Virus record (IMG/VR): IMGVR_UViG_3300043399_000596
Source: a virus
Lineage: Duplodnaviria > Heunggongvirae > Uroviricota > Caudoviricetes
Reading direction: 5' to 3' (one strand)
Length of the DNA: 64,000 nucleotides
Shown: one piece after another, positions 4,810 through 64,000 of the stretch
How the letters are laid out: the number at the start of each line of letters is the position of its first letter
How positions within the stretch are numbered: position 1 is the stretch's first letter
Translations under genes and position numbers: made by a program
The notes under the pieces: generated by a model
The model's database searches: none
The model's input: only the letters and a program-made list of their open reading frames with translations
What the model was told of the DNA's origin: nothing

Positions 4810-4819
4810 GGAGAAAACT

Positions 4820-5014: not shown

Positions 5015-5016
5015 TC

Positions 5017-5289: not shown

Positions 5290-5308
5290 ATAAGTATGTC
5301 ACACAACG

Positions 5309-7182: not shown

Positions 7183-7267
7183 AAATGGTAAATAAAGATA
7201 GCGGCCTCGGTCATCATCCCGCTTTACAAATTCTGCTGCCTATGTTAAACTAATATAGGAGAAAATT

Positions 7268-7756: not shown

Positions 7757-7927
7757 AAAAATTTGGGCTAGAGCCACCGGTCATCTAATGGGTAATACCG
7801 ACGATGACCGTCCGGATGTACCAATACTAACTTTGCGTGAAGCAAGAATCTCATTGTTCCTAAAAACTTTCTGGGTTGTTATACATGTGATAACATGCTT
7901 CTTTATTATTGCAAACACTATTAGGCA

Positions 7928-8215
7928 TTGGTAAATATGGATAGCCGAATTCAAGAAACGTTAGACATTTTACAAGAAGAATGTGCTGAGGTTATCGTTG
8001 AGGTTAGCAAGTGCCGAAGATTCGGGCTTGCTAGCAAACATTATAAAACCGGATTAGAACATTCTATAATGTTGGAAAATGAAATAGGTGATGTACTTGC
8101 TATGGTTGACATTCTACTAGAACAGGGTGTAATATCACAATCAAACTTAGACATTGCTAAGCAAAATAAAAAAGAAAAACTGAAGAAGTGGTCAAACATC
8201 TATGTCACAAATTAA
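7928..8215 (+). CDS. possible MazG-like all-alpha NTP pyrophosphohydrolase
   Basis: 'LQEECAEVIVEVSKCRRFG...ENEIGDVLAMVDILLEQ' resembles MazG EExxE/D helices; weak. Confidence 0.3.
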   Translation: MVNMDSRIQETLDILQEECAEVIVEVSKCRRFGLASKHYKTGLEHSIMLENEIGDVLAMVDILLEQGVISQSNLDIAKQNKKEKLKKWSNIYVTN

Positions 8216-9068
8216 AGTAGCAGAATTATTTTATAGTATCCAGGGTGAAGGTCGTTACATGGGCGTACCAAGCGTGTTCTTACGCACGTTTGGTTGCAAC
8301 TTTACATGCGGCGGTTTTGGAATGCCCGCGGGAACTATTAGTGAAGAAAGAAACAAGATTGACGCAGACAATATTAAAAATTATAAAGATTTGCCCCTCG
8401 TATCTACAGGATGCGATTCATATGCTAGTTGGGATGTTAGGTTTAAGCATCTTTCTCCTGTACTCAGTACTGATAGTCTTGCCGAAAGCATTACTGATAT
8501 TCTTCCTTTCAAAACTTGGCGTGAAGAACACTTGGTAATTACAGGCGGTGAACCATTACTGGGTTGGCAACGTGCTTATCCTGATTTGCTGAATCACGAA
8601 AAAATGCAGGATTTGAAAGAGTTGACGTTTGAAACAAACGGTACACAAGATTTGAGTAAAGAGTTCAGACACTATTTGTTGAACTGGACTTTGAATCCCC
8701 GCGGTACTCCTGGTGGTCGCCGAGGTCGTGATAGCTTGACATTCAGCGTAAGTCCTAAACTAAGTAACAGCGGTGAAAAATGGGAAGATGCAATTCGTCC
8801 TGATGTTATCATGCAGTATGAGGATGTTGGTTACACTTACTTAAAGTTCGTAGTAGCTATACATGATGATGTTGACGAAGCATTAGAAGCAACTAATGAG
8901 TATCGCAACGCAGGATTTAAAGGTCCTGTATATTTGATGCCAGTTGGTGGTGTAGAAAATGTCTATAGTCTTAATAATCGCAGAGTTGCAGATTTAGCAA
9001 TGAAGCATGGATTGCGTTATAGTGACAGACTTCAAGTTCCATTGTTTAAGAACGAGTGGGGTACATGA
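8202..9068 (+). CDS. queE: 7-carboxy-7-deazaguanine synthase (radical SAM)
   Basis: N-terminus 'FYSIQGEGRYMGVPSVFLRTFGCNFTCGGFG' is the QueE Cx14CxxC-type radical-SAM signature. Confidence 0.8.
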   Translation: MSQIKVAELFYSIQGEGRYMGVPSVFLRTFGCNFTCGGFGMPAGTISEERNKIDADNIKNYKDLPLVSTGCDSYASWDVRFKHLSPVLSTDSLAESITDILPFKTWREEHLVITGGEPLLGWQRAYPDLLNHEKMQDLKELTFETNGTQDLSKEFRHYLLNWTLNPRGTPGGRRGRDSLTFSVSPKLSNSGEKWEDAIRPDVIMQYEDVGYTYLKFVVAIHDDVDEALEATNEYRNAGFKGPVYLMPVGGVENVYSLNNRRVADLAMKHGLRYSDRLQVPLFKNEWGT

Positions 9069-9304
9069 TGCTTGATGGAGAAGTATCAGGAGCTCCGCGT
9101 GAAGAAGATTGGGGCTTAAACAAAGTACAAAACTGGAAGTACAAACTATGCTGGCGCCCTAATACTTGTTTTCTAACAGGAAAGCAACTATGGGGAAAGA
9201 AAGCCTATCACGGTGTTCGTATGATTACCGGTCCCGGAGATCCAGTATATGAAGATTACTGGATTGATAGAAACAAATTCATGTTATGGAAACTTACAAA
9301 ATGA
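9056..9304 (+). CDS. hypothetical small protein
   Basis: ORF track; overlaps queE stop. Confidence 0.3.
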   Translation: MGYMMLDGEVSGAPREEDWGLNKVQNWKYKLCWRPNTCFLTGKQLWGKKAYHGVRMITGPGDPVYEDYWIDRNKFMLWKLTK

Positions 9305-9528
9305 AACAAAAATTTAAAGAAATAGCACTAGAAGTGGGCGGTAGTCATTACCCAGATGTGGGTGGAGCATTACTAGAAAAATTCGGCGAAATGGTTGTAG
9401 AAGAATGTGTTAAAGTATTAGAGAACGGTGACTATAGAAAGGTTACCTATACTACTTTTGATGCTTGCTTTAATCCTAGAATTGTGCAAGAATGCATTAG
9501 ATTAATTAACGATACTTTTAAGGAGTAA
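9286..9528 (+). CDS. hypothetical small protein
   Basis: ORF track. Confidence 0.35.
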   Translation: METYKMKQKFKEIALEVGGSHYPDVGGALLEKFGEMVVEECVKVLENGDYRKVTYTTFDACFNPRIVQECIRLINDTFKE

Positions 9529-9531
9529 ATC

Positions 9532-10164
9532 ATGGCAGAGTGGAGTGTAAAACCATCATGGAAAAAATCTATCATTGAACGTAACTATCTTGTTAAAGAT
9601 GGTCAAACTTTTATGGTAGAAACGGGATGGCGTTGGGGTGAATTTTTAGTATATACTGACGATGACAATCCACCAAAAATCGAAGCAGGTGTGGATATCT
9701 ACAATTGTGACTACGAAACTGAGTTAATTGAAACAACCGATGGTTGTTGGGAAGAGTATGATTACGATGATGTAGATGACGAAACCCGCGAATGGTTAGA
9801 AGAATTTTTTGATGAAGGTAATAGTTGGCTTGACCTTGAAGAACATGGTTGGAGTCAAGATGAGTGTGAAATGATTATTGACTGTGACCTTGAAATTAGA
9901 AAATTAAACGAAGATGGCACATGTGGCGAACTTGTCGAAACAAATCAGGAAGAAGACGCAGATACTGAGCAAGCACTACCTAAAACAGGTGCTGTATGGC
10001 CCTTTACAAATGCTAGTAGTGAAGAAACTGAATTAGCAGAATTTACTTGCGAAGATTGTGGATATAGTACTGAGGATATCAACGACTTAGTAGACAATCC
10101 AAACGATGATGACAAGGGTGCATATGTTTGCCCTGAGTGCGGTGGTAGAGTCAACCTAGGATGA
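9532..10164 (+). CDS. highly acidic protein with C-terminal double-CxxC zinc ribbon
   Basis: Asp/Glu-rich ('YDYDDVDDETREWLEEFFDEG'); 'CEDCGYS...YVCPECGG' at C-terminus. Confidence 0.4.
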   Translation: MAEWSVKPSWKKSIIERNYLVKDGQTFMVETGWRWGEFLVYTDDDNPPKIEAGVDIYNCDYETELIETTDGCWEEYDYDDVDDETREWLEEFFDEGNSWLDLEEHGWSQDECEMIIDCDLEIRKLNEDGTCGELVETNQEEDADTEQALPKTGAVWPFTNASSEETELAEFTCEDCGYSTEDINDLVDNPNDDDKGAYVCPECGGRVNLG

Positions 10165-25436: not shown

Positions 25437-26312
25437 TTATTTTTTACTAAACAGTGCCAATTGTGTTCTGTTCTTTACATTAAATTTTTTAAGTACGATT
25501 CCAACGTGAAGTTTAACTGTACTTTCGCTAATATTCAATGTCTTGGCGATGACTTTGTTACTAGCTCCTCTTTCTCTTATCAGGTCTAGAATTTGTTGTT
25601 GTCTTTGAGTTAACTTAATTTGTCCAGGCTTAGCAATATCAGTGGTTCTTTTTGAACCAGATAACTTATCAAGAATCTGTTTAGGCCAATATGGTATATT
25701 TGCCCATTGTGCTGCACAGCCTTTTGTAGCCTCGTCTAAACCAAAATCAGTATGAACTGGTATGATACCGAAAATATTACTTTTTTGTAGCAACTTTATG
25801 GTTTCATATCGAGTATCTTTAGTAATAGCCATTGTCACAGTGACTGTGTGCATGAGATTGACTAATTTAGACATAGTGTTAACCATGTTAACGATTTCTA
25901 CAGCCGAACTATATTTCAATTCAGATTCGGCGAAACATATAGAATAAACACTATTGTCTAGTAGTGAGGGTAAGTCACTCCATTTTTTACAAATAACAAT
26001 TTTTCTAGGTTGTGCATCTAAATGTTTTTGAATTTCTGGAGTAATTTTCAATTTACACGGATCTCTATCGAAATACAAGTGAGTTGGTCTATCATCTATA
26101 GTCATTTGAACATCCTTCTTAATGTTTATAGACTTACTTACTGTGTTACCCCTTTTTAGATTGCCTTCGATAGTATAGGATGTACTTCCGTCATTTGTTG
26201 TAAAGGCTGTACTAGTACTACCTGTACTGTTGTACAGATGATACCAAACTAAACTTCCAGCATCACGTATAGGATACTGATCTTCGTTGAAATTTTCAGT
26301 GTGTGTGTTCAT
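25437..26312 (-). CDS. LuxR/FixJ-family HTH transcriptional regulator with unrecognised N-terminal domain
   Basis: C-terminus 'LTQRQQQILDLIRERGASNKVIAKTLNISESTVKLHVGIVLKKFNVKNRTQLA' is a GerE/LuxR HTH. Confidence 0.6.
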   Translation of the reverse strand: MNTHTENFNEDQYPIRDAGSLVWYHLYNSTGSTSTAFTTNDGSTSYTIEGNLKRGNTVSKSINIKKDVQMTIDDRPTHLYFDRDPCKLKITPEIQKHLDAQPRKIVICKKWSDLPSLLDNSVYSICFAESELKYSSAVEIVNMVNTMSKLVNLMHTVTVTMAITKDTRYETIKLLQKSNIFGIIPVHTDFGLDEATKGCAAQWANIPYWPKQILDKLSGSKRTTDIAKPGQIKLTQRQQQILDLIRERGASNKVIAKTLNISESTVKLHVGIVLKKFNVKNRTQLALFSKK

Positions 26313-37963: not shown

Positions 37964-39850
37964 ATGAGCAAAGTCATCGGTATCGATTTGGGTACCACAA
38001 ATTCATGCGTAGCCGTTATTGAAAACGGCGTTTCAAAAATCATCGAAAACAGCGAAGGTGCACGTACTACCCCTAGTATCGTTGCATATACTAGTGACGA
38101 AGTTTTAGTCGGTGCTAGTGCTAAACGTCAAGCTGTGACAAATCCTAAAAATACAATCTATGCGGCTAAGCGTTTGATAGGTCGTAAGTTTAAAGAAGAA
38201 GCAGTTCAAAAAGATATTGACTTAATGCCATACACTATTGTTGAAAATAGCAACGGTGATGCATGGATCAAGGCACAAGACAAAAAACTTGCACCTCCTC
38301 AAGTATCTGCTGAGGTTCTTCGCAAGATGAAAAAGACTGCGGAAGATTATTTGGGGCATGAAGTAACTCAAGCAGTTATTACAGTTCCCGCATACTTTAA
38401 CGACAGTCAACGTCAAGCTACTAAAGATGCAGGTCGTATAGCAGGTCTAGAGGTTCTACGTATTATTAATGAACCAACTGCGGCTGCTCTAGCATACGGT
38501 GTAGACAAACAAGATACAAAAGACCGAAAAATTGCAGTGTATGATTTAGGTGGCGGTACTTTTGACGTTTCCATTATCGAGATTGCAAACGTTGATGGCG
38601 ATAAACAAATTGAAGTTCTTTCAACAAACGGTGACACATTCCTTGGCGGTGAAGACTTTGACCAACGCATTATGGACTTCTTGGTTGATACCTTTAAACA
38701 AGAACAAGGTATTGACTTGACTAAAGATGTATTGGCACTACAGCGTTTAAAAGAGGCTGCAGAAAAGGCAAAGATTGAATTGTCTAGTTCTGCACAGACA
38801 GACGTTAACTTGCCCTACATTACTGCTGATGCAACAGGACCTAAACATTTAAACATTAAAATCACTCGTGCTAAGTTGGAAAGTTTAGTTGACGAGTTGA
38901 TTCAACGTAGTATTAAACCTTGTAAACAAGCACTTCAGGATGCTGGTGTTACTGTCAGTGAAATCGATGAAGTTATTCTCGTCGGTGGTATGACACGTAT
39001 GCCTAAGGTACAAGAAGTTGTAGAACAGTTGTTTGGTAAAGCACCTCGTAAGGATGTTAACCCAGACGAAGCTGTAGCCGCAGGCGCCGCTATTCAAGGT
39101 AGTGTTTTATCCGGAGACAGAAAAGACGTTCTATTACTTGATGTTACACCACTAAGTTTGGGTATCGAAACAATGGGCGGTGTGTTTACTAAGTTAATTC
39201 AAAAGAACACAACTATTCCAACTAAAGCTAGTCAGACATTCTCTACTGCTGACGACAATCAACCTGCAGTAGATATTAAAGTCGGTCAAGGTGAGCGTGA
39301 ATTGTTTAAGTACAACAAACTATTAGGTGAGTTTAAACTTGACGGTATTGCGCCCGCGCCACGCGGAATGCCCCAGATTGAAGTTACCTTTGATATTGAT
39401 GCTAACGGTATCATGCATATTTCTGCAAGAGACAAAGGTACAGGTAAAGAAAACAAAATCACTATTAAGAGTGACAGCGGACTTCATGAAGCAGAAATTC
39501 AACGAATGGTCCGTGAAGCGGAAGAAAATGCAGAAGCTGATAAAAAGATGGTTGAACTCATTCAAGCACGTAATCATGCAGAATCAGTGTTGAATAATTA
39601 CAGCAATGATTATAAGAAGTTCAAGGATCAAATCACATCTGAAGAAAGTGAAAAGATTCAAACTGCAATCGATGCATGTGAAGTTGCTATTGCGGGAGAC
39701 AATACTGAAGCTATTCAGCAATCAGTAAACGATCTACATCAGGCAATCGGACCTGTGCTTGTTAAGAAGCAAGAGTCTGAGGGTTCTGGAAAGAATACAC
39801 AGTCAGTAGATGAGACTGTAGTAGATGCAGAAGTAAAAGAATCTGCGTAA
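37964..39850 (+). CDS. dnaK: molecular chaperone DnaK (Hsp70)
   Basis: '[16 protein letters not shown]', '[12 protein letters not shown]', '[14 protein letters not shown]'; 628 aa full length; SD 'aaaggagaacacaATG'. Confidence 0.95.
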
Positions 39851-54919: not shown

Positions 54920-55279
54920 TTATCCTTCACCAGCTGCTGCTGTTTTTTCATCATCAGGGTCAACTTTTTTGTGAGTCATTGCTTTTTCGAATTTGTCTTT
55001 GGCTTCTGTCTCAACTTTTACTTGTTCCATAACTCGGTCAGATTCAATAATCTTACCACGTAAATGCAAGACTGTGTTGACTTTTTGGTTTAGTCTAATC
55101 AAGTCATTATCTAGCATTCGTATACGGTCTATAAGGGCAATAAGCACAGTGTTTGCTTCACTAATAACAGGCTTGACTTCTTTCGTACTCCACTCCCATA
55201 CATACTTGATAATATAGCCCATGCCCACTGACATAACTATAGGGAAACCATATTTGTTAATTAGTTCTACTACATCCAT
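54920..55279 (-). CDS. small membrane protein (holin-like), paralog of 55460..55786
   Basis: 'GFPIVMSVGMGYII...LDNDLIRL' vs 'GFPIAVALAGGYFV...MNHDVIRI'. Confidence 0.4.
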   Translation of the reverse strand: MDVVELINKYGFPIVMSVGMGYIIKYVWEWSTKEVKPVISEANTVLIALIDRIRMLDNDLIRLNQKVNTVLHLRGKIIESDRVMEQVKVETEAKDKFEKAMTHKKVDPDDEKTAAAGEG

Positions 55280-55463
55280 CTTCTACTCCCTTTAATATAA
55301 ATTCTTCTAGTTTGTCTACTTTTTTAAGATACCGCTTACCATCAATTATTACAAATTTAAAATAATCTCCGTCTTCCCAACCGAATTTTGCAAGATTCAA
55401 TTCGTCATCAAATGTGATACCCCAATCTTCTATATCCCAATCAAAATCTAAATGTTTCATCAA
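55257..55463 (-). CDS. hypothetical small acidic protein
   Basis: ORF track. Confidence 0.35.
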   Translation of the reverse strand: MMKHLDFDWDIEDWGITFDDELNLAKFGWEDGDYFKFVIIDGKRYLKKVDKLEEFILKGVEDGCSRTN

Positions 55464-55786
55464 TCACGCCTTGCATCGTTCTTACCATCTGAGCGGGCAA
55501 TACGATCTACGTCGGGCTTCAAACCTAAAGCGTTACTTACGATTGTGTCGATTCGGATAACATCGTGGTTCATTGTTTTTACTCGGTTATCTAAAGCAAC
55601 AATAATGCCCTTCATTCCATTGATACTACCCAAAACTCCTTGTAGAAGTAACTTTATAGTTAAGTATACAAAATAACCACCCGCCAATGCAACTGCTATG
55701 GGGAAACCCAAATCACCTATTAGTTTAAAAACATCACTCATAATACACCTCGTATGTAGACTGCTATATACTTTGATATAGGTCAA
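55460..55786 (-). CDS. small membrane protein (holin-like)
   Basis: TM segment 'LIGDLGFPIAVALAGGYFVYLTIKLLL'. Confidence 0.4.
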   Translation of the reverse strand: MTYIKVYSSLHTRCIMSDVFKLIGDLGFPIAVALAGGYFVYLTIKLLLQGVLGSINGMKGIIVALDNRVKTMNHDVIRIDTIVSNALGLKPDVDRIARSDGKNDARRD

Positions 55787-55823
55787 TTAAATATATATTG
55801 ATATATTTATCAGAGGCGCCTCA

Positions 55824-56369
55824 ATGAAACCAAGAATTATAATAGGCTTTCTTATGATGATGATTACGGCAGCTATTGCTGCACCATTGGGTGATTATCA
55901 GTTCAAAAGCCCATCATTTAACGGACAGGGATACAGTTCCCACACCCTAACGATTTATAACCTAGAACAACAAGCCGAAAAAGCTCGTGCTGACGCCGTA
56001 CAGGCTGCAATAGATAAAGCAGCATCAGCGCAAAATAGCACCAATTTACTGAAGTTCATAAACAACTTAGAAAGTCGTATATACGCACAAATTTCCCAAA
56101 ACGTAGCGACTGCTATGTTTGCTAACAATCAATGCAATACGTCAGATGCTACTACTAATTGTTCCGGGCAGATAAATTTCCAAGGAAATTATATTGGTTG
56201 GAGCAGAGTCAGTGACGCTAGTAACTGTGTAGGATCTCCAAATGGAACTTGCATTTTAATGAAAATCGGTGATAATACCGCTACTAACCCAGCAAGTGCA
56301 TTATGCACAGATATAGGAATGAGTTGTATATACATTCCTTTGTCTAGTTTTCAAATACCGGGGAACTAA
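55824..56369 (+). CDS. csgF: CsgF-like curli assembly protein (secreted)
   Basis: Signal peptide then 'DYQFKSPSFNGQG', matching the CsgF N-terminal 'TFQFRNPNFGGNP' CsgG-plugging motif; 'LLKFINNLESRIYAQISQ' ~ 'LDNFTQAIQSQILGG'. Confidence 0.5.
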   Translation: MKPRIIIGFLMMMITAAIAAPLGDYQFKSPSFNGQGYSSHTLTIYNLEQQAEKARADAVQAAIDKAASAQNSTNLLKFINNLESRIYAQISQNVATAMFANNQCNTSDATTNCSGQINFQGNYIGWSRVSDASNCVGSPNGTCILMKIGDNTATNPASALCTDIGMSCIYIPLSSFQIPGN

Positions 56370-56372
56370 TGT

Positions 56373-57170
56373 ATGAAGAACATGATATTAGTCCTAGTGG
56401 CAATTACTCTAAGTGGGTGTGCAATTACTCAGTTTAATCCTTTGACTCCGGAGATAAAACCTGAAGTATCTAAAGTAATGATGCAGAAGGAATTCGACAC
56501 TATTCCGGGCCCAAGTAATGGGAAGAAAATTAGTGTGGCTGTTTATAACTTTAGAGATTTAACTGGGCAGCGTAGACCTACTGCCAACATCGCTAGTTTA
56601 TCAACTGCGGTAACACAAGGTGCCGAAACATTTTTGATTAAAGCATTACAAGATGTTGGTCAAGGAAAATGGTTTGATGTTGTAGAACGTGTTGGCTTAG
56701 ATAACATAACAAAAGAACGTTTAATTATTCGCCAAATGCGTGAATCATACGAAGGTAAAGATGCCAAACCTTTGATGCCTATGCAATTTGCTGGTATCAT
56801 AGTAGAAGGCGGTATTGTAGGATATGACAGCAGCACGAAGTCAGGTGGAGTCGCAATGCGTTGGTTAGGCATTGGACCGCAAAGTCAATACTCTGAGGAT
56901 ATAGTAACTGTAAGTGTTCGTGCAATTTCAGTAAACACTGGAAAAGTGTTAACTTCAGTGACAGTACAAAAAACAATACTCAGTTCAGCAGATAGTGTTT
57001 CAGCATTAAGATTTTTTGATGCAGGTACAAGATCGTTTGAAGCAGAAATGGGTATGACAATAAACGAACCAGGGACCTACGCTGTTAAATCAGCTATTGA
57101 AGCAGCCGTTGTTGAGTTAATCAAAGACGGCGAAAGAAAAGGTTTATGGGGGTACATAAAAGAAGAATAA
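56373..57170 (+). CDS. csgG: curli production assembly/transport lipoprotein CsgG
   Basis: Lipobox 'LSGC'; 'ISVAVYNFRDLTGQRRP', 'FAGIIVEGGIVGYDSSTKSGGVAMRWLGIGPQSQYSEDIVTVSVRAISVNTGKVL' collinear with E. coli CsgG. Confidence 0.8.
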   Translation: MKNMILVLVAITLSGCAITQFNPLTPEIKPEVSKVMMQKEFDTIPGPSNGKKISVAVYNFRDLTGQRRPTANIASLSTAVTQGAETFLIKALQDVGQGKWFDVVERVGLDNITKERLIIRQMRESYEGKDAKPLMPMQFAGIIVEGGIVGYDSSTKSGGVAMRWLGIGPQSQYSEDIVTVSVRAISVNTGKVLTSVTVQKTILSSADSVSALRFFDAGTRSFEAEMGMTINEPGTYAVKSAIEAAVVELIKDGERKGLWGYIKEE

Positions 57171-57206
57171 TAACAAAAAGATGCATAAGCATCCGGGAGA
57201 ACTAAA

Positions 57207-58157
57207 ATGGTTAAACCATATAAAAATATAATAGCATTACTAATAAGTGCAATGGTTTCTTTCAACGGCATTGCCGCTGACAACAGTGTGTATATAGACC
57301 AAGCAGGGGATAATAGTACAATAACTATTACTCAAGATGGTTCTAGTAATAAAGTAAAGGGAATTCTGATCAACGGAACGCCCGGAGGCACTACAGATTC
57401 TGCTAAGTTAGCAGGTGATGCCCAAACAGTTAACATTCAACAAACGGGTACTAATAACGTATTGTCTTTGGGGATTACTTCTACGCAAGGTGGCACAGTA
57501 CCAAATTATACTAACATCGGTGCTAATTTGAATTATGAAGTAACTGGTAGCAACAACACAGGTTACATTAACGTTAACAACAACGGGTTAGGTACTTCAG
57601 CAGGCAACGTGATTGGAATTACGCAAGACGGTGGGGGTAATGTTGATTTACGTATGACAGGTACAAGCAATCAACTATCATACACTTCAGCAGGCGGAAG
57701 TGGTAACAAGCTAACAGCAAATATCAATGCAAGCGAAACAGTAACAACTATTAATCAGACTGGTGGTGGCGGAAATGAAACTACAGTAAGTATGACAGGT
57801 AACAAAGGTCAAGTATTAATTGCTAGTATCGGTGCTGCTAACTTGATTGACATTAATCAGAGCGGTGGTGGAGTTAATGGTGCTACAGTGAATATAAATC
57901 TTACTGGTAGTGGTAACGACACTACAGTTACTCAAAGTGGTTTATACGATAACATATTTAACTATACCGGCACTGGCAGCAACAACGTAATTGTTTTGGC
58001 TCAGAGCGGTGGCGCTAGTGCAGGACAAAATACTCAACTACTAATTAACGGATCAAGCAATAATTTGTCAATTACCCAACAGGGATCAGTTGATAATTTG
58101 TCAAATGTTAAAATAACAGGAAATAATAATAGCTATACCATACTACAGAAAAACTAA
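57207..58157 (+). CDS. curlin-repeat (CsgA/CsgB-like) secreted protein
   Basis: Signal peptide; repeated 'x-I-x-Q-x-G-x-x-N' units ('VYIDQAGDNS', 'VNIQQTGTNN', 'TINQTGGGGN', 'IDINQSGGGVN', 'LSITQQGSVDN'). Confidence 0.55.
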   Translation: MVKPYKNIIALLISAMVSFNGIAADNSVYIDQAGDNSTITITQDGSSNKVKGILINGTPGGTTDSAKLAGDAQTVNIQQTGTNNVLSLGITSTQGGTVPNYTNIGANLNYEVTGSNNTGYINVNNNGLGTSAGNVIGITQDGGGNVDLRMTGTSNQLSYTSAGGSGNKLTANINASETVTTINQTGGGGNETTVSMTGNKGQVLIASIGAANLIDINQSGGGVNGATVNINLTGSGNDTTVTQSGLYDNIFNYTGTGSNNVIVLAQSGGASAGQNTQLLINGSSNNLSITQQGSVDNLSNVKITGNNNSYTILQKN

Positions 58158-58158
58158 C

Positions 58159-59268
58159 ATGAAATTATGTAACGTATTAATTTTTCTTTGTTTCTCAGCA
58201 GCGGCATCAATTTGTAATGCCGCTATTGGCACAGTAACAGAACAAGTTAATGCAGTGGCTACTATTCAAAGAGACAAAGCATCATTACAGGGGACAAAAG
58301 GGTTTAGTGTTGAAATGAATGATGCCATAAAAACCCAACAAGGTAAAGTAGGTATCACATTTGAAGATAGTACACGTGTTCAAGTTAATGAAAATTCTAA
58401 ACTAGTAATTGATGATTTTGTTTATGATCCAAAAAATAAAGCAGGTAAACTTGGTGCTAAAGTCGCTCTTGGCACAGTTAGGTACGCTAGTGGAGCCATT
58501 GCTCACAACAACCCTAGATCCGTTTCACTTAATACTCCTAGTGCTACTATTGCTGTCCGCGGTACAGATTTTACTGCCACTGTAGAAGAACTTGGTGAAT
58601 CAACTATAATTTTATTACCTAGTTGTCCAAATGATCGTCCTACTAGAACAGTAAAAGATATTGAGGCTGCTTGTAAGACAGGAGAAATTGAAGTTATAAC
58701 TGATGTTGGATCTGTTATATTAAACCAACCATTTCAAGTGACTAAAGTAAATAGCAGGAGCGATCAACCCACCAAGCCTGTTATATTAAATTTGTCTGAG
58801 ATGGCAATTAGTAATTTATTGATATTGAGTCCCCCGAAAGAGATCAAAAATTCACAAGCAGCAGAGACAAAAATTTGGAATCCGCTAGACTTTAATGCAC
58901 TAGACAAAGATGAATTAAAGAATGCACTAGACGAACAAAACAAACAATTCTTCTACGCTCAATTAGAAAGAAACTTTTTATCCAATAGCTTTTTAGCAAG
59001 CCTATTTGACATTATAGGTAATGCGTTGAATGAAAATTTGTTAGCACAGATTGATTCCGTAATACCGGATTACAGAAAAAGTAGTGGAATCGTAGTAGTA
59101 AAAGAAGATCCAACTATACAATTATGTAGAGACAGTGGCGCTGATATACAGTGCATAACTACACCATTAACTCAAAACTCAACATTGTACCAAACACAAG
59201 GTACGTTAGAGTTTAAGAACCGCATCAATAATGGTGGCAATACAATTATTACAGTGGTACAAAGATGA
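58159..59268 (+). CDS. FecR-domain secreted protein
   Basis: Signal peptide; 'GTVRYASGAIAH...SATIAVRGTDFTATV' FecR-type beta-sandwich motif. Confidence 0.45.
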   Translation: MKLCNVLIFLCFSAAASICNAAIGTVTEQVNAVATIQRDKASLQGTKGFSVEMNDAIKTQQGKVGITFEDSTRVQVNENSKLVIDDFVYDPKNKAGKLGAKVALGTVRYASGAIAHNNPRSVSLNTPSATIAVRGTDFTATVEELGESTIILLPSCPNDRPTRTVKDIEAACKTGEIEVITDVGSVILNQPFQVTKVNSRSDQPTKPVILNLSEMAISNLLILSPPKEIKNSQAAETKIWNPLDFNALDKDELKNALDEQNKQFFYAQLERNFLSNSFLASLFDIIGNALNENLLAQIDSVIPDYRKSSGIVVVKEDPTIQLCRDSGADIQCITTPLTQNSTLYQTQGTLEFKNRINNGGNTIITVVQR

Positions 59269-60527
59269 AGAAATTTCTTCTTGGATTAGTGTTATCTTTG
59301 TGCAGTATCGCATCTTGGGCTGTAAGTTTCACGGATTTAAAATTTGGTCAGTATCAAATTGCAGATTCTCAATGGGATGTTGGTGCTTGCTTATATACTT
59401 CCACTTGTAACATATATTACACTCAGCCCGGAACAATGTATACTATTCCTTGGTATAACGGGCAATGGAGCTGGCAAGCCGGGCAATACGTTAAATTTTC
59501 CCTAAGCGGCAATTCTTCTTATCCTTACACAGCTAATGTTTATAACAGCAACGGAACGTTAGCAGGAACAGTGGGGACTGGTAAAATTATAAACATGGGT
59601 GTTGACTCAAATGGATACGCTCTATTCTTCTTTGTCGGTAATGATGATAATACAGGACAATTGTTTAGTGCTAACTACGGTATGACAGGAAATAGCGGAT
59701 ATTCTTGGACTGGTACTTTAAACCCTACATTATCACAAGTTGATTCGTTTGCTAACAGTTATGGTAGTACATCTCCACTTGCATCCGGACAAACATACAC
59801 GGCTACTCCAACACCATCAGGACCCACTATCACCGGTGGAACAATCACACAAACGAACAGTCCTGGTACAGAAGTCATAACAAGCGGTAGTTCTAGTACA
59901 GCAGGTCCATCCAATGCACAGACTACATCTCAAACAAATTGGAGTACTAATGCTAATCCAAGCAATGTGAATAATTATCTTTACATAGACCAAGTTAGCG
60001 GGAACTATAATTCTGTTACGATTACTCAGTCTGGATCAAAAAACACAATGTATTTAGGACTCAACGGTAGTAGCAATACAGTGTCCGCAGACCAAACAGG
60101 GACTAATTATTTGAATGGTCTAGTGCAAGGAACGCAAAATCAATTAACATCTTCGCAATCCAACACCGCAGGATCGAATTACCAAGAAACTAAAATAATG
60201 AGCAATACTTATACGGGTAATACTATCAATGCCACACAGATAGGAAATGGTAATAACTTAATGTTTAACACTATTAACGGTAGTAACAATACTATTACTG
60301 CTAGTCAATCAGGTTCCGGCAATCATTATTTAGAAAACAAGTTAACAGGCAACGGAAATACAGTTCTATCTTCTCAAACAGGTTCTACAGGGAACAATGC
60401 TAACGTTGATTTAACTAATGCGGGTGGTCCTGCAAGTCTGGACCTTCAACAATCAGGTGGGAAGAACTTTACTATTATACAAAGTTGCACTAATCCCGCA
60501 GGATGCACTACTGTGATAAGACAATAA
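59265..60527 (+). CDS. second curlin-repeat secreted protein with non-repeat N-terminal domain
   Basis: Signal peptide; C-terminal half has 'YIDQVSGNYN', 'VTITQSGSKN', 'VSADQTGTNY', 'INATQIGNGNN', 'ITASQSGSGNH', 'LDLQQSGGKN'. Confidence 0.5.
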   Translation: MKKFLLGLVLSLCSIASWAVSFTDLKFGQYQIADSQWDVGACLYTSTCNIYYTQPGTMYTIPWYNGQWSWQAGQYVKFSLSGNSSYPYTANVYNSNGTLAGTVGTGKIINMGVDSNGYALFFFVGNDDNTGQLFSANYGMTGNSGYSWTGTLNPTLSQVDSFANSYGSTSPLASGQTYTATPTPSGPTITGGTITQTNSPGTEVITSGSSSTAGPSNAQTTSQTNWSTNANPSNVNNYLYIDQVSGNYNSVTITQSGSKNTMYLGLNGSSNTVSADQTGTNYLNGLVQGTQNQLTSSQSNTAGSNYQETKIMSNTYTGNTINATQIGNGNNLMFNTINGSNNTITASQSGSGNHYLENKLTGNGNTVLSSQTGSTGNNANVDLTNAGGPASLDLQQSGGKNFTIIQSCTNPAGCTTVIRQ

Positions 60528-60570
60528 AACTAGATTTATATATTACACTAAATATAGTAAAGGAGAAATT

Positions 60571-61104
60571 ATGTCAGAGAAAAAACCATTATCTAGAAGC
60601 GAGAGAGAAGCAAAAATAAAAGATAAAGCAGGGTGGGTAATCACCGTAATTGCTGCACTACTTGCGGTAAATACTTATATTTCTAACGGTAACTCTAGTA
60701 AAGTATTAAACAACACAATTAAAGCCAATGATACTTGGAGTTTCTACCAAGCTAAATCAATCAAACAAACACTAGCTGAGCAAAGTTTAGATGATGCGAT
60801 AGCCCGCGGTGATAAAGAAAAAGCTGAAAAACTAAAAGCCAAGATTGCACGTTATGAATCTGAACCTGAAACTGGTGAAGGAAAGAAAGAACTAATGGCA
60901 AAAGCACGTGCTTTAGAAGCTGAGAGAGATCATATCCGTAAGTCAGGTCCATGGATGACGTTTAGCGGTATGTCATATCAATTGGGTATTGTTTTATTGT
61001 CAGCTAGTATTCTAGCTGTTAGTATGCCACTATTCTGGGGGAGTATTGCTGTTAGTGGAATAGGTGCGATTTTAATGAGCCAAGGTATTTGGCTTTGGAT
61101 GTAA
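60571..61104 (+). CDS. membrane protein (N-terminal TM, charged coiled-coil core, two C-terminal TM)
   Basis: 'GWVITVIAALLAV...' and 'LGIVLLSASILAVSMPLFWGSIAVSGIGAILM'. Confidence 0.4.
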   Translation: MSEKKPLSRSEREAKIKDKAGWVITVIAALLAVNTYISNGNSSKVLNNTIKANDTWSFYQAKSIKQTLAEQSLDDAIARGDKEKAEKLKAKIARYESEPETGEGKKELMAKARALEAERDHIRKSGPWMTFSGMSYQLGIVLLSASILAVSMPLFWGSIAVSGIGAILMSQGIWLWM

Positions 61105-61108
61105 AATT

Positions 61109-61315
61109 ATGAGTACGTATAATCAACAAGCAATTATAGACAAATTTAACAGAATGCGTGAATTTACTATTGAAGTTGAGGTACCCGAAGGTAAGCAACT
61201 CAGCGGTGTAATACCTTATGAGCCACTTGTCTCACAAAACAAGGGTAGATTCAAAATATACGCAACAAGTTACGATGAGGCACACGAAATAGTTTCTAAA
61301 TATCTTAATGCATAA
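61109..61315 (+). CDS. hypothetical small protein
   Basis: ORF track. Confidence 0.4.
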   Translation: MSTYNQQAIIDKFNRMREFTIEVEVPEGKQLSGVIPYEPLVSQNKGRFKIYATSYDEAHEIVSKYLNA

Positions 61316-61318
61316 TAT

Positions 61319-61340
61319 GGCCCCGAAAGGGGCCTTTTTT
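61319..61340 (+). terminator. rho-independent terminator
   Basis: 'ggccccgaaaggggcc' hairpin followed by T6. Confidence 0.7.
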
Positions 61341-61353
61341 ATAGGAGAAAGTT

Positions 61354-61500
61354 ATGAGCTGGTATAGAAAAAGTCCAAGAGTCAAAGAACCACCTAAGCA
61401 TTTACCCCATCATAGGACAAGTCCTGCTACTGAAAAAATGCTAGAAGCAGCTAAGAAAACAGTTAAAGAAACAGGTAAGGTTCCAAAAAATCATAAATAA
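61354..61500 (+). CDS. small basic protein (48 aa, below track cutoff)
   Basis: SD 'ataggagaaagttATG'; 'MSWYRKSPRVKEPPKHLPHHRTSPATEKMLEAAKKTVKETGKVPKNHK'. Confidence 0.35.
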   Translation: MSWYRKSPRVKEPPKHLPHHRTSPATEKMLEAAKKTVKETGKVPKNHK

Positions 61501-61553
61501 TAGATTATAGTGAAATTACCTTATATGGTGGTGGCACTACAAGAGAACACCAC

Positions 61554-63617
61554 ATGAAAAAAATAATTAAAAAACTTCTACTAAGTCCGTGGACTGCTTT
61601 AGCAACATTGGCCTTAATTATCGGAGTAAGAGCAACAGATCCTACATTTGTTGAAAGTGTACGATTAAGATATTTTGATACTCTTATTGTTAGTAAAGAA
61701 ATTACCCAAAATAATATTATCACTGTTAACATTGACGAAGATAGTTTATCAAAATACGGTCAATGGCCATTACCCAGAGGTGAATATGGAAAAATCATCG
61801 AAGAATTATATAAAAAGAACGCCGGTCTTGTTGTGTTTAATGTGCTTATGCCTAATCCTGATAGAAGTGGCCAAGACGATAGGTTTGCACAGTATCTAAA
61901 CAAATATCCTGTTATACTACCTAGTAGTCCTGCCGAACAAACAAAAAACAAACCAAGAAATCCTGGAAGTGCAGTAGTTGGTAGCCAACACACTGACATG
62001 ATTGTTCAGTATCCGGGGCTAATTGCAAATACTCCCATAGTAGAAAATGCGGCAGCTGGTATAGGCATCACAAATACGTTACCTGAAATAGACGGTGTTA
62101 ATCGCAGAATTCCATTAGTGATAACAGTAGACGGAAAAATCTATCCTAGCTTGAGTATAGAGACATTACGAGTAGCTGCTGGTGATAGTACTGTTCAAGT
62201 TAAACTTAATGAACTTGGCGTAGAAAAGATGCGTATACCAAAATTTGGTCCTATTGCAACAGATAGTTTAGGTCGTATTTGGATTGATTACAGCCAGAAA
62301 AGTCAAAGCTACAGTTTGACAAACTTACCAAAAGATTTGAATGGCGCAATAGTAATTGTCGGTACCACTGCTGCTGGATTAAGTAATCCTGTACCAACGA
62401 GCATTGGTGCAGTATTCCCACATGAATTACAAGCAAGTGTCATAGGCACTATGATGAATGGTGTTGTAATTCAAAGACCTGATTACGCTGACGGTTTAGA
62501 AATAATCGCAATAGCAGTAATGGGTATAATTTTATTATTCTTAACGAGGTATATATATGTCGGGTTGGCGTCGGTTATTATTATATGTGTTGGCGTGGTT
62601 GTTGGTAGCCAGTATATGTTCAGCAACTATCTATTTTTATTTGATGCAACTGCCGTTCTTAGTGGCACAGTCTTGGTCTCTTTGCATGCCTATGGTGTCA
62701 AGTTTATAAGCGAATTTTTACAGAAACAACAAATAAAGAAACAATTTGGAACATATTTGAGTCCTGCACTTGTAGAGAAGTTACAGAAGAATCCTGAACT
62801 ACTGACATTGGGCGGCGAGTCACGTGAACTTTCAATTATGTTTACAGACGTTAGAGGCTTCACCGGTATTAGTGAGCATTACGGTAAAGATGTACAAGGC
62901 TTAACATCAATAATGAACAGATACATGACCGCAATGACTGCTAAGATATTGGAGAACGAAGGTACACTAGATAAGTATATAGGGGATGCACAAATGGCTT
63001 TCTGGAACGCGCCATTGGATGATCCAAGACACGCACACAATGCGGTGAGGACTGCAATCTCTATGTTAGGGAGTTTAGATGCGTTCAATATGGAAATTGC
63101 TAAAGAAGGTGTACCGGCATTTGGTATGGGTTTGGGAATTAACACCGATACTGTTGTTGTTGGAAATATGGGGTCTAGTCAGAGGTTTGACTATACTTGT
63201 CTCGGTGACGGCGTTAATCTTGCTAGCCGTTTGGAGGGACAGTCTAAGCCCTATGGTGTCAGAATTGTTATCGGTGCTCTAACCGCTGAAAAAATTAAAG
63301 ATGAATATTTTGTATTAGAACTAGATTGCATCGCAGTTAAAGGTAAAACACAAGGGGTCAATATATTCACAGTCCTAGAAACAGATAGTAACTCTATGGT
63401 CGAATATCTACAGACACGAGAATTGCATGACTTGATGTTAGCCCATTATCGTGAACAAAAATGGAGTAGTGCGTTAAATCTTCTAGAAAAACTCAAAGGT
63501 GAGTTTGATAGTAATATGGACCACTACTATGATATGATGATTGAAAGAATAGGAGAACTTCGTGAAGCTAATTTACCTAATGATTGGGATGGTGTCTATC
63601 GCGCCACTAGTAAGTAA
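61554..63617 (+). CDS. CHASE2 sensor domain-containing class III adenylate/guanylate cyclase
   Basis: N-terminal TM plus periplasmic CHASE2-like region, 3-4 TM helices, then the cyclase core 'SIMFTDVRGFTGISE', 'KYIGDAQMAFWNAP', 'GVNLASRLEG'. Confidence 0.75.
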   Translation: MKKIIKKLLLSPWTALATLALIIGVRATDPTFVESVRLRYFDTLIVSKEITQNNIITVNIDEDSLSKYGQWPLPRGEYGKIIEELYKKNAGLVVFNVLMPNPDRSGQDDRFAQYLNKYPVILPSSPAEQTKNKPRNPGSAVVGSQHTDMIVQYPGLIANTPIVENAAAGIGITNTLPEIDGVNRRIPLVITVDGKIYPSLSIETLRVAAGDSTVQVKLNELGVEKMRIPKFGPIATDSLGRIWIDYSQKSQSYSLTNLPKDLNGAIVIVGTTAAGLSNPVPTSIGAVFPHELQASVIGTMMNGVVIQRPDYADGLEIIAIAVMGIILLFLTRYIYVGLASVIIICVGVVVGSQYMFSNYLFLFDATAVLSGTVLVSLHAYGVKFISEFLQKQQIKKQFGTYLSPALVEKLQKNPELLTLGGESRELSIMFTDVRGFTGISEHYGKDVQGLTSIMNRYMTAMTAKILENEGTLDKYIGDAQMAFWNAPLDDPRHAHNAVRTAISMLGSLDAFNMEIAKEGVPAFGMGLGINTDTVVVGNMGSSQRFDYTCLGDGVNLASRLEGQSKPYGVRIVIGALTAEKIKDEYFVLELDCIAVKGKTQGVNIFTVLETDSNSMVEYLQTRELHDLMLAHYREQKWSSALNLLEKLKGEFDSNMDHYYDMMIERIGELREANLPNDWDGVYRATSK

Positions 63618-63876
63618 CGCAGAGATAATAGAACACAATATCAAAATATCCTGTGATGATACTTCTATTATCTTCAATACCTTGAAGAAAGATTACAAAG
63701 AAATACCATTTGTGTTGGGGAAAACAAGTGACATTGCAAATACAGTAATGTCACTATGGGTTAATCCCGCTTCAAAAACTTGGACTATACTGTCTACAAA
63801 AAATGATATAACTTGCGTTATTGGTGTGGGTGATAAGTTAGAATTGATAGTACCAAAGGCTGGTTCAACTCATTAA
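63562..63876 (+). CDS. secreted small protein
   Basis: Signal peptide 'MIGMVSIAPLVSNA'; the true start is probably an internal Met. Confidence 0.4.
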   Translation: MKLIYLMIGMVSIAPLVSNAEIIEHNIKISCDDTSIIFNTLKKDYKEIPFVLGKTSDIANTVMSLWVNPASKTWTILSTKNDITCVIGVGDKLELIVPKAGSTH

Positions 63877-64000
63877 AAATGCTAGCAGCAAATAGACTAA
63901 TTGGTGCGCCATTTGGTCTAGTCCTAAATGGTTCCAAAATTGGGGTGTGCTGATATCACGATTACCATAGTTCATTTTAGTCCAATCGATATGATAATGT

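Follow-up and report, generated by a model that had tools for sequence, protein, structure and literature searches.

In the DNA of a large aquatic phage, an intact gene for a membrane-bound enzyme, predicted to make cAMP, lies near genes for curli-fibre secretion. The gene sits in a 64,000-nucleotide stretch of viral DNA (IMG/VR record IMGVR_UViG_3300043399_000596, hereafter the window). We interpret its product, with a probability of roughly 0.6, as a working adenylate cyclase of the receptor type, which would be placed by the phage in the host inner membrane, where a cue mediated by a FecR-domain protein would be converted into cAMP. Wittmers et al. (mSystems 2022, PMC9599517) described FecR and an “adenylate cyclase” in the T8SS (curli) module of pelagiphages, so the core finding was already known; the pairing of cyclase and curli genes, published for marine phages in that year, is real and not new in kind. 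An earlier sequence-only reading of this DNA was unaware that the association was in print (PMC9599517). New here is that the sensor is CHASE2, and the present analysis adds that the module also occurs on phage contigs of 236-375 kb.

A CHASE2 receptor with a complete cyclase core

The cyclase gene and its parts are as follows.

61554..63617, plus strand: predicted CHASE2-sensor class IIIb adenylate cyclase, whole gene; ATG start, 687 aa; phrog_35576, E 1.7e-242
61587..62486, plus strand: TM1 (residues 12-28) and periplasmic CHASE2 alpha/beta domain (29-311); Pfam, AF2
62487..62807, plus strand: three TM helices (312-332, 334-359, 365-about 385) leading into a cytoplasmic linker helix; hydropathy, AF2
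62808..63377, plus strand: cyclase catalytic domain, residues 419-608; alignments to 3R5G and 1WC0, Foldseek
63378..63617, plus strand: C-terminal three-helix bundle (612-671) and conserved tail ...DWDGVYRATSK; AF2

An N-terminal TM helix, a CHASE2 domain and a multi-TM segment had been read from the 687-aa sequence, and Pfam, hydropathy and AF2 bear this out. CHASE2 (PF05226) is matched at residues 18-325 over profile positions 2-256 of 257 (Pfam, E 1.1e-41; score 143.6 bits, cutoff 26.3), and Guanylate_cyc (PF00211) at residues 424-600 (Pfam, E 7.7e-17; score 61.9 bits, cutoff 21.9); an NCBIfam search returned no model matching the cyclase. Hydropathy places a single TM helix at the N-terminus (about 12-28) and three more at about 312-385, as does the AF2 model. 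The modelled helices span 12-28, 312-332, 334-359 and 365-398, with a mean pLDDT of 90.2 for the whole protein and 91-97 throughout the CHASE2 block. This order of TM helix, extracytoplasmic CHASE2, three TM helices and output domain is the usual architecture of CHASE2 transmembrane receptors. The N-terminus, MKKIIKK, is positive-inside, and the protein is oriented N-in, with a periplasmic CHASE2 domain and with catalytic domain and C-terminal bundle on the cytoplasmic side. The bundle has no Pfam match, relaxed thresholds yielding sub-threshold noise only. It is also kept in bacterial CHASE2-cyclases, with R665 invariant and G680 conserved at 90% or more, and in alignment the cyclase of Pelagibacter phage HTVC008M is without bundle and tail.

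Pfam and residue alignments uphold the description of the protein as a class III cyclase whose sensor is CHASE2 and whose catalytic core is complete, and its motifs lie at the sites first given (FTDVRGFT at 430-437, YIGDAQMAFWNAP at 475-487 and GVNLASRLEG at 553-562). All seven catalytic residues are present: D432, K474, D478, R544, T548, N555 and R559. The metal-binding D432 and D478 match those of CyaC and CyaB (alignment to 1WC0 and 3R5G). Loss of this Asp pair or of the transition-state Asn/Arg had been named as the mark of a pseudo-cyclase; both pairs are intact, and across 53 viral and bacterial homologues D432, D478, N555 and R559 are invariant, with K474 and R544 at least 90% conserved. 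The alignment proposed earlier for judging the substrate gives Lys474 and Thr548, the ATP-type pair of CyaB (3R5G) and CyaC (1WC0). The resulting signature, DKDRTNR, occurs in 195 of 204 viral family members, and its DKDR(T/S)NR form is shared by the closest bacterial homologues. Matches to PDB sequences reach E 3.5e-29 (phmmer), and Foldseek superposes the model on CyaB 3R5G with a target-normalised TM-score of 0.90 and an rmsd of 1.5-1.8 Å. Since Lys/Thr denotes the ATP-specific class IIIb type, the gene product is predicted from its residues to be such an adenylate cyclase, and not a guanylate cyclase or a pseudo-enzyme. The guanylate-cyclase reading was rejected on the residue alignment (Lys/Thr, not Glu/Cys), as was the pseudo-cyclase reading, the catalytic residues being complete. 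Bicarbonate responsiveness is a known trait of class IIIb enzymes.

The curli module and its linkage to the cyclase

Upstream of the cyclase and on the same strand lies a curli cluster that Pfam confirms as real.

54920..55279, minus strand: small membrane/coiled-coil protein, 119 aa, phrog_18771 paralogue A; PHROG E 3e-28
55460..55786, minus strand: small membrane/coiled-coil protein, phrog_18771 paralogue B; PHROG E 4e-29
55824..56369, plus strand: CsgF-like protein with signal peptide; Pfam CsgF E 3e-07, 31.1 bits against 25.8; phrog_35372
56373..57170, plus strand: CsgG outer-membrane curli channel lipoprotein (LSGC lipobox); Pfam CsgG E 7e-50
57207..58157, plus strand: curlin-repeat protein 1 (CsgA/B-like) with signal peptide; Pfam Curlin_rpt 26.4 bits against 20.7
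58159..59268, plus strand: secreted FecR-domain protein, 369 aa, with signal peptide; Pfam FecR at 56-148, E 5e-10; phrog_37870
59265..60527, plus strand: curlin-repeat protein 2 with signal peptide; Pfam Curlin_rpt 28.6 bits against 20.7
60571..61104, plus strand: inserted DUF4337 membrane protein; Pfam DUF4337 E 1.4e-28
61109..61315, plus strand: 68-codon ORF of the inserted segment, no family match (Pfam, PHROG)
61319..61343, plus strand: intrinsic terminator GGCCCC-GAAA-GGGGCC + TTTTTT; sequence reading and scanner, 6/6 GC pairs
61355..61501, plus strand: 48-codon ORF with a GGAG-type ribosome-binding site in the interval between terminator and cyclase; sequence reading

CsgG also matches the NCBIfam CsgG model (E 1e-51), under the equivalog cutoff. 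The two phrog_18771 proteins are 28% identical and have a GFPI motif in common; paralogue A is modelled as one long helix (2-102, AF2, pLDDT 74), and paralogue B likely starts at the Met that gives 93 aa (55460-55741). For these small proteins Pfam at relaxed thresholds yielded sub-threshold noise only, such as YvrJ at E 0.004. They are probably the ‘HK, sometimes two’ of PMC9599517.

The cyclase had been placed directly downstream of the curli cluster. Downstream it is, but not directly, as it starts 1,026 bp past the last curlin gene. In Methylophilales phage Melnitz and in HTVC008M the second curlin-repeat gene immediately precedes the cyclase, and in the IMG/VR relatives the distance between cyclase and FecR gene is variable. 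The inserted DUF4337 gene is not constant in the module, as just 6 of 83 cyclase loci have it close to the cyclase; the 68-codon ORF has no homologue among these loci. The stem of the terminator (61319-61334) is perfect and begins 3 nt past the stop codon of that ORF. Because this terminator precedes it, the window cyclase is probably transcribed as a separate unit or relies on read-through.

The module order, namely the two phrog_18771 proteins, CsgF, CsgG, a curlin-repeat protein, the FecR-domain protein, a second curlin-repeat protein and the cyclase, is common to HTVC008M and Melnitz. The cyclase is encoded on hundreds of IMG/VR contigs. Among the 83 loci, FecR is present in 70, CsgG in 68 and CsgF in 67, the remainder being mostly cut contigs, and phrog_18771 homologues are similarly frequent (paralogue A in 71/83, paralogue B in 70/83, the pair in 68); a profile search places the pair directly upstream of csgF in Melnitz and HTVC008M. 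Conversely, the cyclase occurs in 41 of 42 FecR-anchored loci with full flanks. The linkage is kept through convergent and divergent rearrangements and inversions. The cyclase belongs to a conserved phage cassette with the phrog_18771 pair, CsgF, CsgG, one or more curlin-repeat proteins and FecR.

Within the protein, the linker (residues 381-423) is the most conserved segment (88%), followed by the catalytic domain (83%). CHASE2 has a mean identity of 67% across 203 viral homologues, with many invariant periplasmic residues. The window cyclase is 38-40% identical to the HTVC008M and Melnitz proteins. Its lineage groups with 236-375 kb contigs bearing chaperone and protease genes, and the MAG-binned copies closest to it are labelled Bacteroidetes/Chitinophagaceae and Luteolibacter. 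A nucleotide search with positions 55000-64000 against 50,697 phage records gave no match.

A FecR-domain protein as the probable partner of the sensor

The sequence-only reading overlooked the FecR-domain gene within its ‘curli cluster’, which is the likelier functional partner of CHASE2. A scan of a genome collection for cellular relatives by peptide patterns yielded 17 loci. L099 is the only clearly chromosomal homologue from that scan, and most of the 17 are probably mis-binned phage contigs. In five of five bacterial loci (L099, L181, L182, L183 and L184) a FecR-domain gene adjoins the CHASE2-cyclase; three of these also have type I or two-partner secretion genes, and L181 further holds a cNMP-binding gene and a metallo-beta-lactamase-fold gene. 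The window FecR protein aligns with the bacterial FecR protein encoded directly upstream of the L184 cyclase (29% over 186 aa, E 2e-15). FecR genes are also found beside CHASE2 sensors in Campylobacterota (PMC9239204), Burkholderia and Pseudomonas (PMC5192318) and S. meliloti (PMC5498481).

The window protein has a FecR domain only (56-148, Pfam), with no anti-sigma domain, and its N-terminus reads as a cleavable signal peptide; for its C-terminal half, Pfam at relaxed thresholds gave sub-threshold noise only. Neither an ECF sigma factor nor a TonB receptor is encoded in the module, among the Pfam matches listed. A FecI/FecR ferric-citrate anti-sigma system was considered and rejected on these three absences. 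Because FecR genes neighbour CHASE2-cyclases in all five bacterial loci, often by surface-protein secretion systems, the FecR-domain protein is probably a partner of the CHASE2 sensor, not an iron regulator. Some podophage modules have FecR but no cyclase (Wittmers et al., PMC9599517), so that FecR follows csg no less closely than it follows the cyclase.

Alternative readings

Could the window be mis-called bacterial DNA, and the cyclase an ordinary cellular gene? Cell-like genes abound in it (DnaK, at 65% to bacterial DnaK, ClpP, ClpX, ClpS, SOD and sugar-nucleotide enzymes), and bacterial MAGs contain several homologous contigs. We give this almost no credence: the MAG contigs with the cyclase, all of them short, are scattered over phyla unrelated to one another and have the cassette in its phage form, whereas the clearly chromosomal L099 (33% identity) has a different gene context. 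That the cyclase is virus-encoded, as first proposed, is upheld by tail-fibre, tail-collar, virion-structural and Que-pathway PHROG matches, by many PHROG-only families in the window, and by relatives on 236-375 kb IMG/VR contigs and in two cultured phage isolates. A degenerate pseudo-cyclase or scaffold, retained for its membrane and CHASE2 part, is hardly credible. A minority subtype (8/204, with Melnitz, L048, L074 and others) does have Ser in place of the transition-state Asn, but the window protein and 195/204 relatives retain the seven catalytic residues, and conservation along the protein peaks in its catalytic domain and linker. It is also very improbable that a different nucleotide (cGMP, or the cCMP/cUMP of Pycsar) is made in place of cAMP for anti-defence or communication. 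PADLOC PycC models match the catalytic domain (best E 1.3e-22), and Cya2 (2W01), a solved guanylate cyclase, is among its structural neighbours; however, the PycC matches reflect the superfamily only, true adenylate cyclases matching at least as well (E 1e-25 to 1e-29), and the nearest bacterial homologues share DKDR(T/S)NR. Lys474/Thr548 is a purine/ATP-type pair, shared with CyaB and CyaC, instead of Glu/Cys or Glu/Gly, and no cNMP-binding effector adjoins the gene. On these grounds a Pycsar (PycC) assignment was rejected, and the Lys/Thr pair and the lack of a Pycsar-type effector likewise disfavour the earlier suggestion of a non-canonical cNMP for anti-defence. We know of no Pycsar architecture with CHASE2.

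An unlikely, though weightier, alternative is a stand-alone auxiliary cyclase that floods the cell with cAMP and reprogrammes host carbon and energy metabolism via CRP-like regulators, its link to curli and FecR being physical only. This is essentially the main idea of the sequence-only reading. A terminator and inserted genes part the cyclase from the curli genes, and two loci with full flanks (L062 and L082) have the cyclase and small proteins with no csg or FecR within 10 kb. Class III cyclase domains also occur in unrelated PHROG families (phrog_29613, 34154 and 25255), which means that phages gain cyclases in further settings as well. Against such a cyclase stand the co-localisation in 41/42 and about 70/83 loci, through inversions, and the adjacency of FecR and CHASE2 in 5/5 bacterial loci, while the conservation of CHASE2 argues for regulated, not constitutive, output. 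CRP boxes are not enriched in the window: a scan found 2 against 3.46 expected, none of them near the module. The more specific proposal that the phage rewires host cAMP/CRP control of csg was speculation from E. coli and finds no footing here, with CRP boxes below chance and a module without csgD.

A reader of cAMP was sought on the phage side. Among the Pfam matches listed for 106 window ORFs, cNMP_binding, CRP and phosphodiesterase families are absent. Probes for a cAMP receptor or phosphodiesterase were single sequences: with phmmer, neither E. coli CRP nor the Afipia cNMP-binding and MBL-fold proteins had a match in the window or about 160 viral loci, and with tblastn the Afipia protein matched only Salmonella contaminant records among all phage records, including Melnitz and HTVC008M.

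Proposed function

How would a membrane-bound receptor cyclase serve a phage? FecR-type domains pass outer-membrane events onward, and in the reading that we favour the secreted FecR-domain protein would be the likeliest mediator of the cue. It could couple CHASE2 to the state of the CsgG/CsgF/curlin apparatus in the outer membrane, or to some other envelope signal. By analogy with S. meliloti CyaD1, in which removal of CHASE2 leads to constitutive cAMP (PMC5498481), the domain would silence the cyclase unless a cue came from the periplasm or envelope. Cytoplasmic cAMP might then be read by a host cNMP-binding protein or some phage factor, and its reading would alter host physiology or the timing of infection. 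More tentatively, and well short of the confidence placed in the receptor itself, FecR and the CHASE2 cyclase may together act as a trans-envelope sensor carried by the phage, which would report through cytoplasmic cAMP on the phage-built CsgG/CsgF/curlin apparatus, envelope contact or superinfection.

If so, a virus would supply a whole receptor-to-second-messenger pathway to hosts without curli. FecR with CHASE2 beside fibre or adhesin secretion (T8SS in phages, T1SS and two-partner systems in alphaproteobacteria) would then be an unrecognised, widespread theme, and would provide the first physiological input for CHASE2. The phage cyclase offers a tractable system for learning what CHASE2 domains sense. 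It is the sole component of the module with a clear enzymatic, testable output, and therefore a practical entry to the function of the whole. With a CHASE2 sensor and FecR as its habitual bacterial partner, a testable signalling model takes the place of the ‘iron regulator’. Phage curli systems are abundant in the oceans, at about 0.1% of assembled viral proteins (PMC9599517).

Comparison with known systems

The solved enzymes closest in fold are P. aeruginosa CyaB (3R5G) and Spirulina CyaC (1WC0), which share the Lys/Thr pair, the Asp pair and the Asn/Arg pair with the window cyclase at target-normalised TM-scores of 0.87-0.90, but are only about 31-34% identical to it and have other sensor modules. 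CyaB has MASE2, and CyaC has other N-terminal domains.

Closer in design are the bacterial CHASE2 adenylate cyclases (S. meliloti CyaD1/CyaD2/CyaK, PMC5498481; Campylobacterota, PMC9239204; and the alphaproteobacterial L099 and L181-L184), which resemble the window protein in architecture, length (about 700-750 aa), DKDR(T/S)NR signature, C-terminal bundle and adjoining FecR-domain gene, at 27-39% identity. Their clusters feature type I or two-partner secretion, giant adhesins, TPR proteins and a phosphodiesterase-like or cNMP-binding gene, and no curli; unlike them, the phage cassette shows no receptor or phosphodiesterase. The ‘BiofilmReg’ operon of Burkholderia and Pseudomonas, a FecR(+LysM)/CHASE2-histidine-kinase operon tied to a biofilm phenotype (PMC5192318), likewise has a secreted FecR-domain protein directly 5' of a CHASE2 sensor. 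Its output differs, being a histidine kinase and response regulator with no cyclase, and it has no curli genes.

The nearest counterpart is the module of Wittmers et al. (HTVC008M, KC465899; Melnitz, MZ577097), with which the window shares gene set, gene order, cyclase architecture and PHROG 35576: CsgF, CsgG, curlin-repeat proteins, a FecR-domain protein and the cyclase are co-located on a viral genome in both. That account (PMC9599517) does not name CHASE2 and reads FecR as an iron regulator. The window differs in that DUF4337, two small ORFs and a terminator precede the cyclase and in that the small-protein pair is on the opposite strand; Melnitz has a tmRNA upstream, whereas Rfam and tRNA scans of the window gave no matches. 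The jumbo-phage papers covered by the analysis mention neither curli nor a cyclase. The relatives of the window are contigs of 236-375 kb, compared with ~140 kb for the T4-like pelagimyophages of the Wittmers module, and the module is thus not confined to the T4-like pelagimyophages and podophages so far described.

A conserved cassette of curli, FecR-domain and cyclase genes

The CHASE2-sensor class III cyclase belongs to a cassette with curli genes (type VIII secretion, T8SS), a FecR-domain gene and two small phrog_18771 genes.

Features of the module and of the inserted segment (Pfam and PHROG assignments; the CsgF-like, CsgG, curlin-repeat and FecR-domain proteins have N-terminal signal sequences)
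54920-55279, -, phrog_18771 small protein
55460-55786, -, phrog_18771 small protein, paralogue
55824-56369, +, CsgF-like protein
56373-57170, +, CsgG, with a lipobox
57207-58157, +, curlin-repeat protein 1
58159-59268, +, FecR-domain protein
59265-60527, +, curlin-repeat protein 2
60571-61104, DUF4337 gene (membrane protein), inserted after the last curlin gene and ahead of the cyclase
61319-61343, terminator: all-GC perfect hairpin with a T-run, between 68-codon and 48-codon ORFs
61554-63617, +, CHASE2-class III cyclase, ATG start, 687 aa

The cyclase ORF lies exactly where the sequence-only reading had placed it. That reading put it directly downstream of the curli cluster; it is downstream and on the same strand, but not directly, since a segment at 60571-61501 intervenes, comprising the DUF4337 gene, the 68-codon ORF, the terminator and the 48-codon ORF, in that order. 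DUF4337 occurs near the cyclase in just 6 of 83 related loci, so the segment is a local insertion in this window.

Within 10 kb of the cyclase in these 83 cyclase-anchored loci are FecR (70), CsgG (68) and CsgF (67). Nearly all loci without them are truncated contigs, and the only clear exceptions are L062 and L082. Conversely, of the 42 FecR-anchored loci whose flanks reach 8 kb or more on both sides, 41 contain the cyclase. The cyclase and csg/FecR units may lie on the same strand, converge (e.g. L003, L005, L018 and L043) or diverge (L032), and their staying together across these orientations and rearrangements indicates that selection maintains the linkage.

The phrog_18771 paralogues, small membrane/coiled-coil proteins, are as constant as csg and FecR, occurring in 71 and 70 of the 83 loci and together in 68. 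Neither their strand nor the end of the module at which they sit is fixed, and they adjoin the cyclase even in L082, which has no csg. The predicted structure is one long helix, with an N-terminal hydrophobic GFPI segment; residues 8-90 are almost invariant among close relatives. At least 8,000 database homologues exist, none annotated.

Domain structure and catalytic residues of the cyclase

Pfam assigns residues 18-325 to CHASE2 (E 1.1e-41) and 424-600 to a class III cyclase domain (E 7.7e-17), both far over the curated cutoffs. Hydropathy reveals a Lys-rich N-terminus and a single TM segment, followed by a three-TM cluster at ~312-380. The AlphaFold2 model, for which 53 viral and bacterial sequences were aligned, is confident, with a mean pLDDT of 90.2. 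It resolves TM1 (12-28), a folded periplasmic alpha/beta domain (29-311), three helices (312-332, 334-359 and 365-398, of which the third extends into the cytoplasm), the cyclase fold (419-608) and a three-helix bundle (612-671). The cytoplasmic position of the catalytic domain follows from the positive-inside N-terminus together with the four TM helices. Mean identity is 67% in the CHASE2 sensor, 88% in the linker and 83% in the catalytic part.

The C-terminal bundle is kept in other viral and in bacterial CHASE2-cyclase homologues; the cyclase of Pelagibacter phage HTVC008M (L002, 8992-10827) stops just past the catalytic domain and is without it. The last 56 nt of the window cyclase gene are shared with a 104-aa ORF (63562-63876, +; phrog_25396, function unknown), whose homologues adjoin the cyclase in 8 related loci.

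Residues were mapped with HMMER alignments to the solved adenylate cyclases CyaB of P. aeruginosa (3R5G) and CyaC of Spirulina (1WC0/1WC1). D432 and D478 align with the metal-binding aspartates, K474 and T548 with the adenine-specifying Lys/Thr pair, R544 with the phosphate-binding Arg, and N555 and R559 with the transition-state Asn/Arg, roles established for class III cyclases. The three motifs quoted in the sequence-only reading fall at residues 430-437, 475-487 and 553-562, and its description of a complete catalytic core holds: the Asp and Asn/Arg pairs, whose loss it had named as the mark of a pseudo-cyclase, are present and invariant across the 53 viral and bacterial CHASE2-cyclases (K474 and R544 are conserved in 90% or more), 195 of 204 viral family members have the seven-residue signature DKDRTNR, and the modelled catalytic domain superimposes on CyaB with a target-normalised TM-score of 0.90 (rmsd 1.5-1.8 Å).

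The substrate residues, which the same reading had left to alignment, are the adenine-specifying pair, and this marks a predicted class IIIb, ATP-specific enzyme. A non-canonical cNMP for anti-defence or communication is thus unlikely. PADLOC models of the Pycsar cyclase PycC do match the domain (best E 1.3e-22), a similarity at superfamily level only, and no effector gene lies nearby.

A minority cyclase subtype has Asp for Thr at 548 and Ser for the transition-state Asn555 (motifs IKYIGDASMHIHNAP and SYDVLGDSVSTAARIES). Its members are the enzyme of Methylophilales phage Melnitz (L001, 8977-11028) and those of L048, L074, L012, L016, L028, L054 and L058.

A large-genome phage lineage

The window has no nucleotide match to catalogued phages. 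By cyclase protein, its closest isolated relatives are Melnitz (40% identity, 98% coverage) and HTVC008M (37.6%), both with the same gene order, CsgF-CsgG-curlin-FecR-curlin-cyclase, and with the phrog_18771 pair directly upstream of csgF. Many far closer relatives (69-86% identity) occur in a large protein database, several on 330-375 kb contigs and one labelled as an uncultured Caudovirales phage (CAB4138201.1). Cyclase relatives are also encoded on at least 523 IMG/VR contigs, some of 236-344 kb that have further flanking genes in common with the window. The window has PHROG matches to tail-fibre, tail-collar and virion-structural proteins and genes for DnaK, ClpP, ClpX, ClpS, HSP20, an SPFH protein, Fe/Mn-SOD and DNA ligase, as well as for Que-pathway and sugar-nucleotide enzymes. 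It represents a large-genome phage lineage, probably jumbo, distinct from the ~140 kb pelagimyophages.

The nearest MAG-binned cyclase copies, some from lake datasets, carry the labels Bacteroidetes/Chitinophagaceae and Luteolibacter. These origins hint weakly at habitat and host, and the lean of the closest copies towards Bacteroidetes/Chitinophagaceae hints weakly at the host. Short contigs with the phage-type csgFG-FecR-cyclase cassette (L084-L098) lie inside MAGs of unrelated phyla (Bacteroidetes, Verrucomicrobia, Rhodobacteraceae, Pirellulales, Flavobacteriaceae and Pelagibacter), and most likely represent phage DNA that was placed in cellular bins.

The DnaK (37964-39850, +) is full length and ~65% identical to bacterial DnaK. 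Other ORFs at ~28.8-55 kb encode ClpP, ClpX, ClpS, HSP20, an SPFH/Band-7 protein, Fe/Mn superoxide dismutase and a 5'-deoxyribonucleotidase; for a virus, this proteostasis complement is large, and the related locus L003 carries GroEL/GroES too. Positions 1-28800 encode Que-pathway proteins (GTP cyclohydrolase I, QueD-like PTPS, QueE-like radical SAM), sugar-nucleotide enzymes (epimerase, GDP-mannose dehydratase, mannose-6-P isomerase, cytidylyltransferases), UvdE endonuclease, an Hc1 histone-like protein, a collagen-repeat protein and a papain-family protease. A 291-aa protein (25437-26312, -; homologue in L037), encoded away from the curli genes, has a LuxR/GerE-type HTH that scores as sigma-70 region 4 too, and shares its broad class of regulator with CsgD.

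FecR-domain proteins as proposed partners of CHASE2 sensors

The phage FecR-domain protein carries a signal peptide and, as its sole domain, FecR (residues 56-148), with no anti-sigma N-domain, and the module contains no ECF sigma factor or TonB-dependent receptor. In cells, FecR-domain genes habitually lie next to CHASE2 sensors. In Campylobacterota, a phosphodiesterase, a FecR-domain protein and a TPR protein cluster with CHASE2-cyclases (PMC9239204), and in a biofilm-regulating operon of Burkholderia and Pseudomonas, a LysM-FecR gene is directly upstream of a CHASE2 histidine kinase gene (PMC5192318). In each of the five alphaproteobacterial loci examined, the CHASE2-cyclase cluster includes a FecR-domain gene.

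CHASE2-cyclase clusters of alphaproteobacterial loci
L099, 3513-15204, 2,107-aa FecR-Ig/cadherin adhesin overlapping the cyclase start, then ABC and HlyD type I secretion genes
L181 (Afipia), 1-10081, giant FecR protein, ABC, membrane-fusion protein, cyclase, MBL-fold protein, cNMP-binding protein
L182 (Pelagibius), FecR-VWA protein, then cyclase
L183, 1-9052, FecR, TpsB and TpsA, divergent from cyclase and TPR protein
L184, 215-aa FecR protein, then cyclase

The FecR partner in these bacteria is often a giant Ig/cadherin/VWA adhesin-like protein, clustered with type I or two-partner secretion genes. In Afipia, the MBL-fold and cNMP-binding genes right after the cyclase would complete a cAMP circuit.

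The phage and L184 FecR proteins align over 186 residues (29% identity, E 2e-15). With this homology and the presence of FecR in all five loci, the FecR/CHASE2-cyclase pair seems to be a signalling unit that recurs alongside surface-fibre or adhesin secretion systems, the T8SS in phages. CHASE2 may gate the cyclase on a periplasmic cue, which the secreted FecR-domain protein would deliver or modulate, possibly reporting on the CsgG/CsgF/curlin apparatus, and the resulting cAMP could act on a host receptor or some phage receptor. In S. meliloti, the CHASE2 cyclases CyaD1, CyaD2 and CyaK work via Clr, with targets that include a FecR-domain protein, and CyaD1 without CHASE2 synthesizes cAMP constitutively (PMC5498481).

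Against such a mechanism stand the terminator ahead of the cyclase in the window, the rare cyclase-only loci, the Asp548/Ser555 subtype, and reported podophage modules with FecR but without the cyclase. Probes of limited sensitivity detected no cAMP receptor or phosphodiesterase in the window or ~160 viral neighbourhoods. The sequence-only reading had suggested that the cyclase could rewire host cAMP/CRP control, CRP being a known regulator of native csg operons. This idea of CRP acting on csg finds no support here, because CRP-box matches in the window are not enriched.

Comparison with known phage curli modules

Phage curli genes were discussed by Zaragoza-Solas et al. 2020 (PMC7029224) and Buchholz et al. 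2022 (PMC9004378), neither of which mentions the cyclase, CHASE2 or FecR. Wittmers et al. 2022 (PMC9599517) described FecR, adenylate cyclase and histidine kinase as non-canonical components of the pelagiphage T8SS module in podo- and myoviruses, a module distributed and expressed ocean-wide. They found the phage cyclase closest to alphaproteobacterial cyclases and read FecR as an iron-dependent regulator; CHASE2 is unmentioned. Their "histidine kinase, sometimes two" is probably the phrog_18771 pair, in which we found no kinase signature. As the HTVC008M and Melnitz genes are also already annotated in GenBank as adenylate/guanylate cyclases, the core finding was known. The additions here are the CHASE2 identification, the argument for a FecR-CHASE2 partnership, the phrog_18771 companions and a wider phage range. 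The window's cyclase module is a further case of the module described in marine pelagiphages, found here in another, larger phage lineage.
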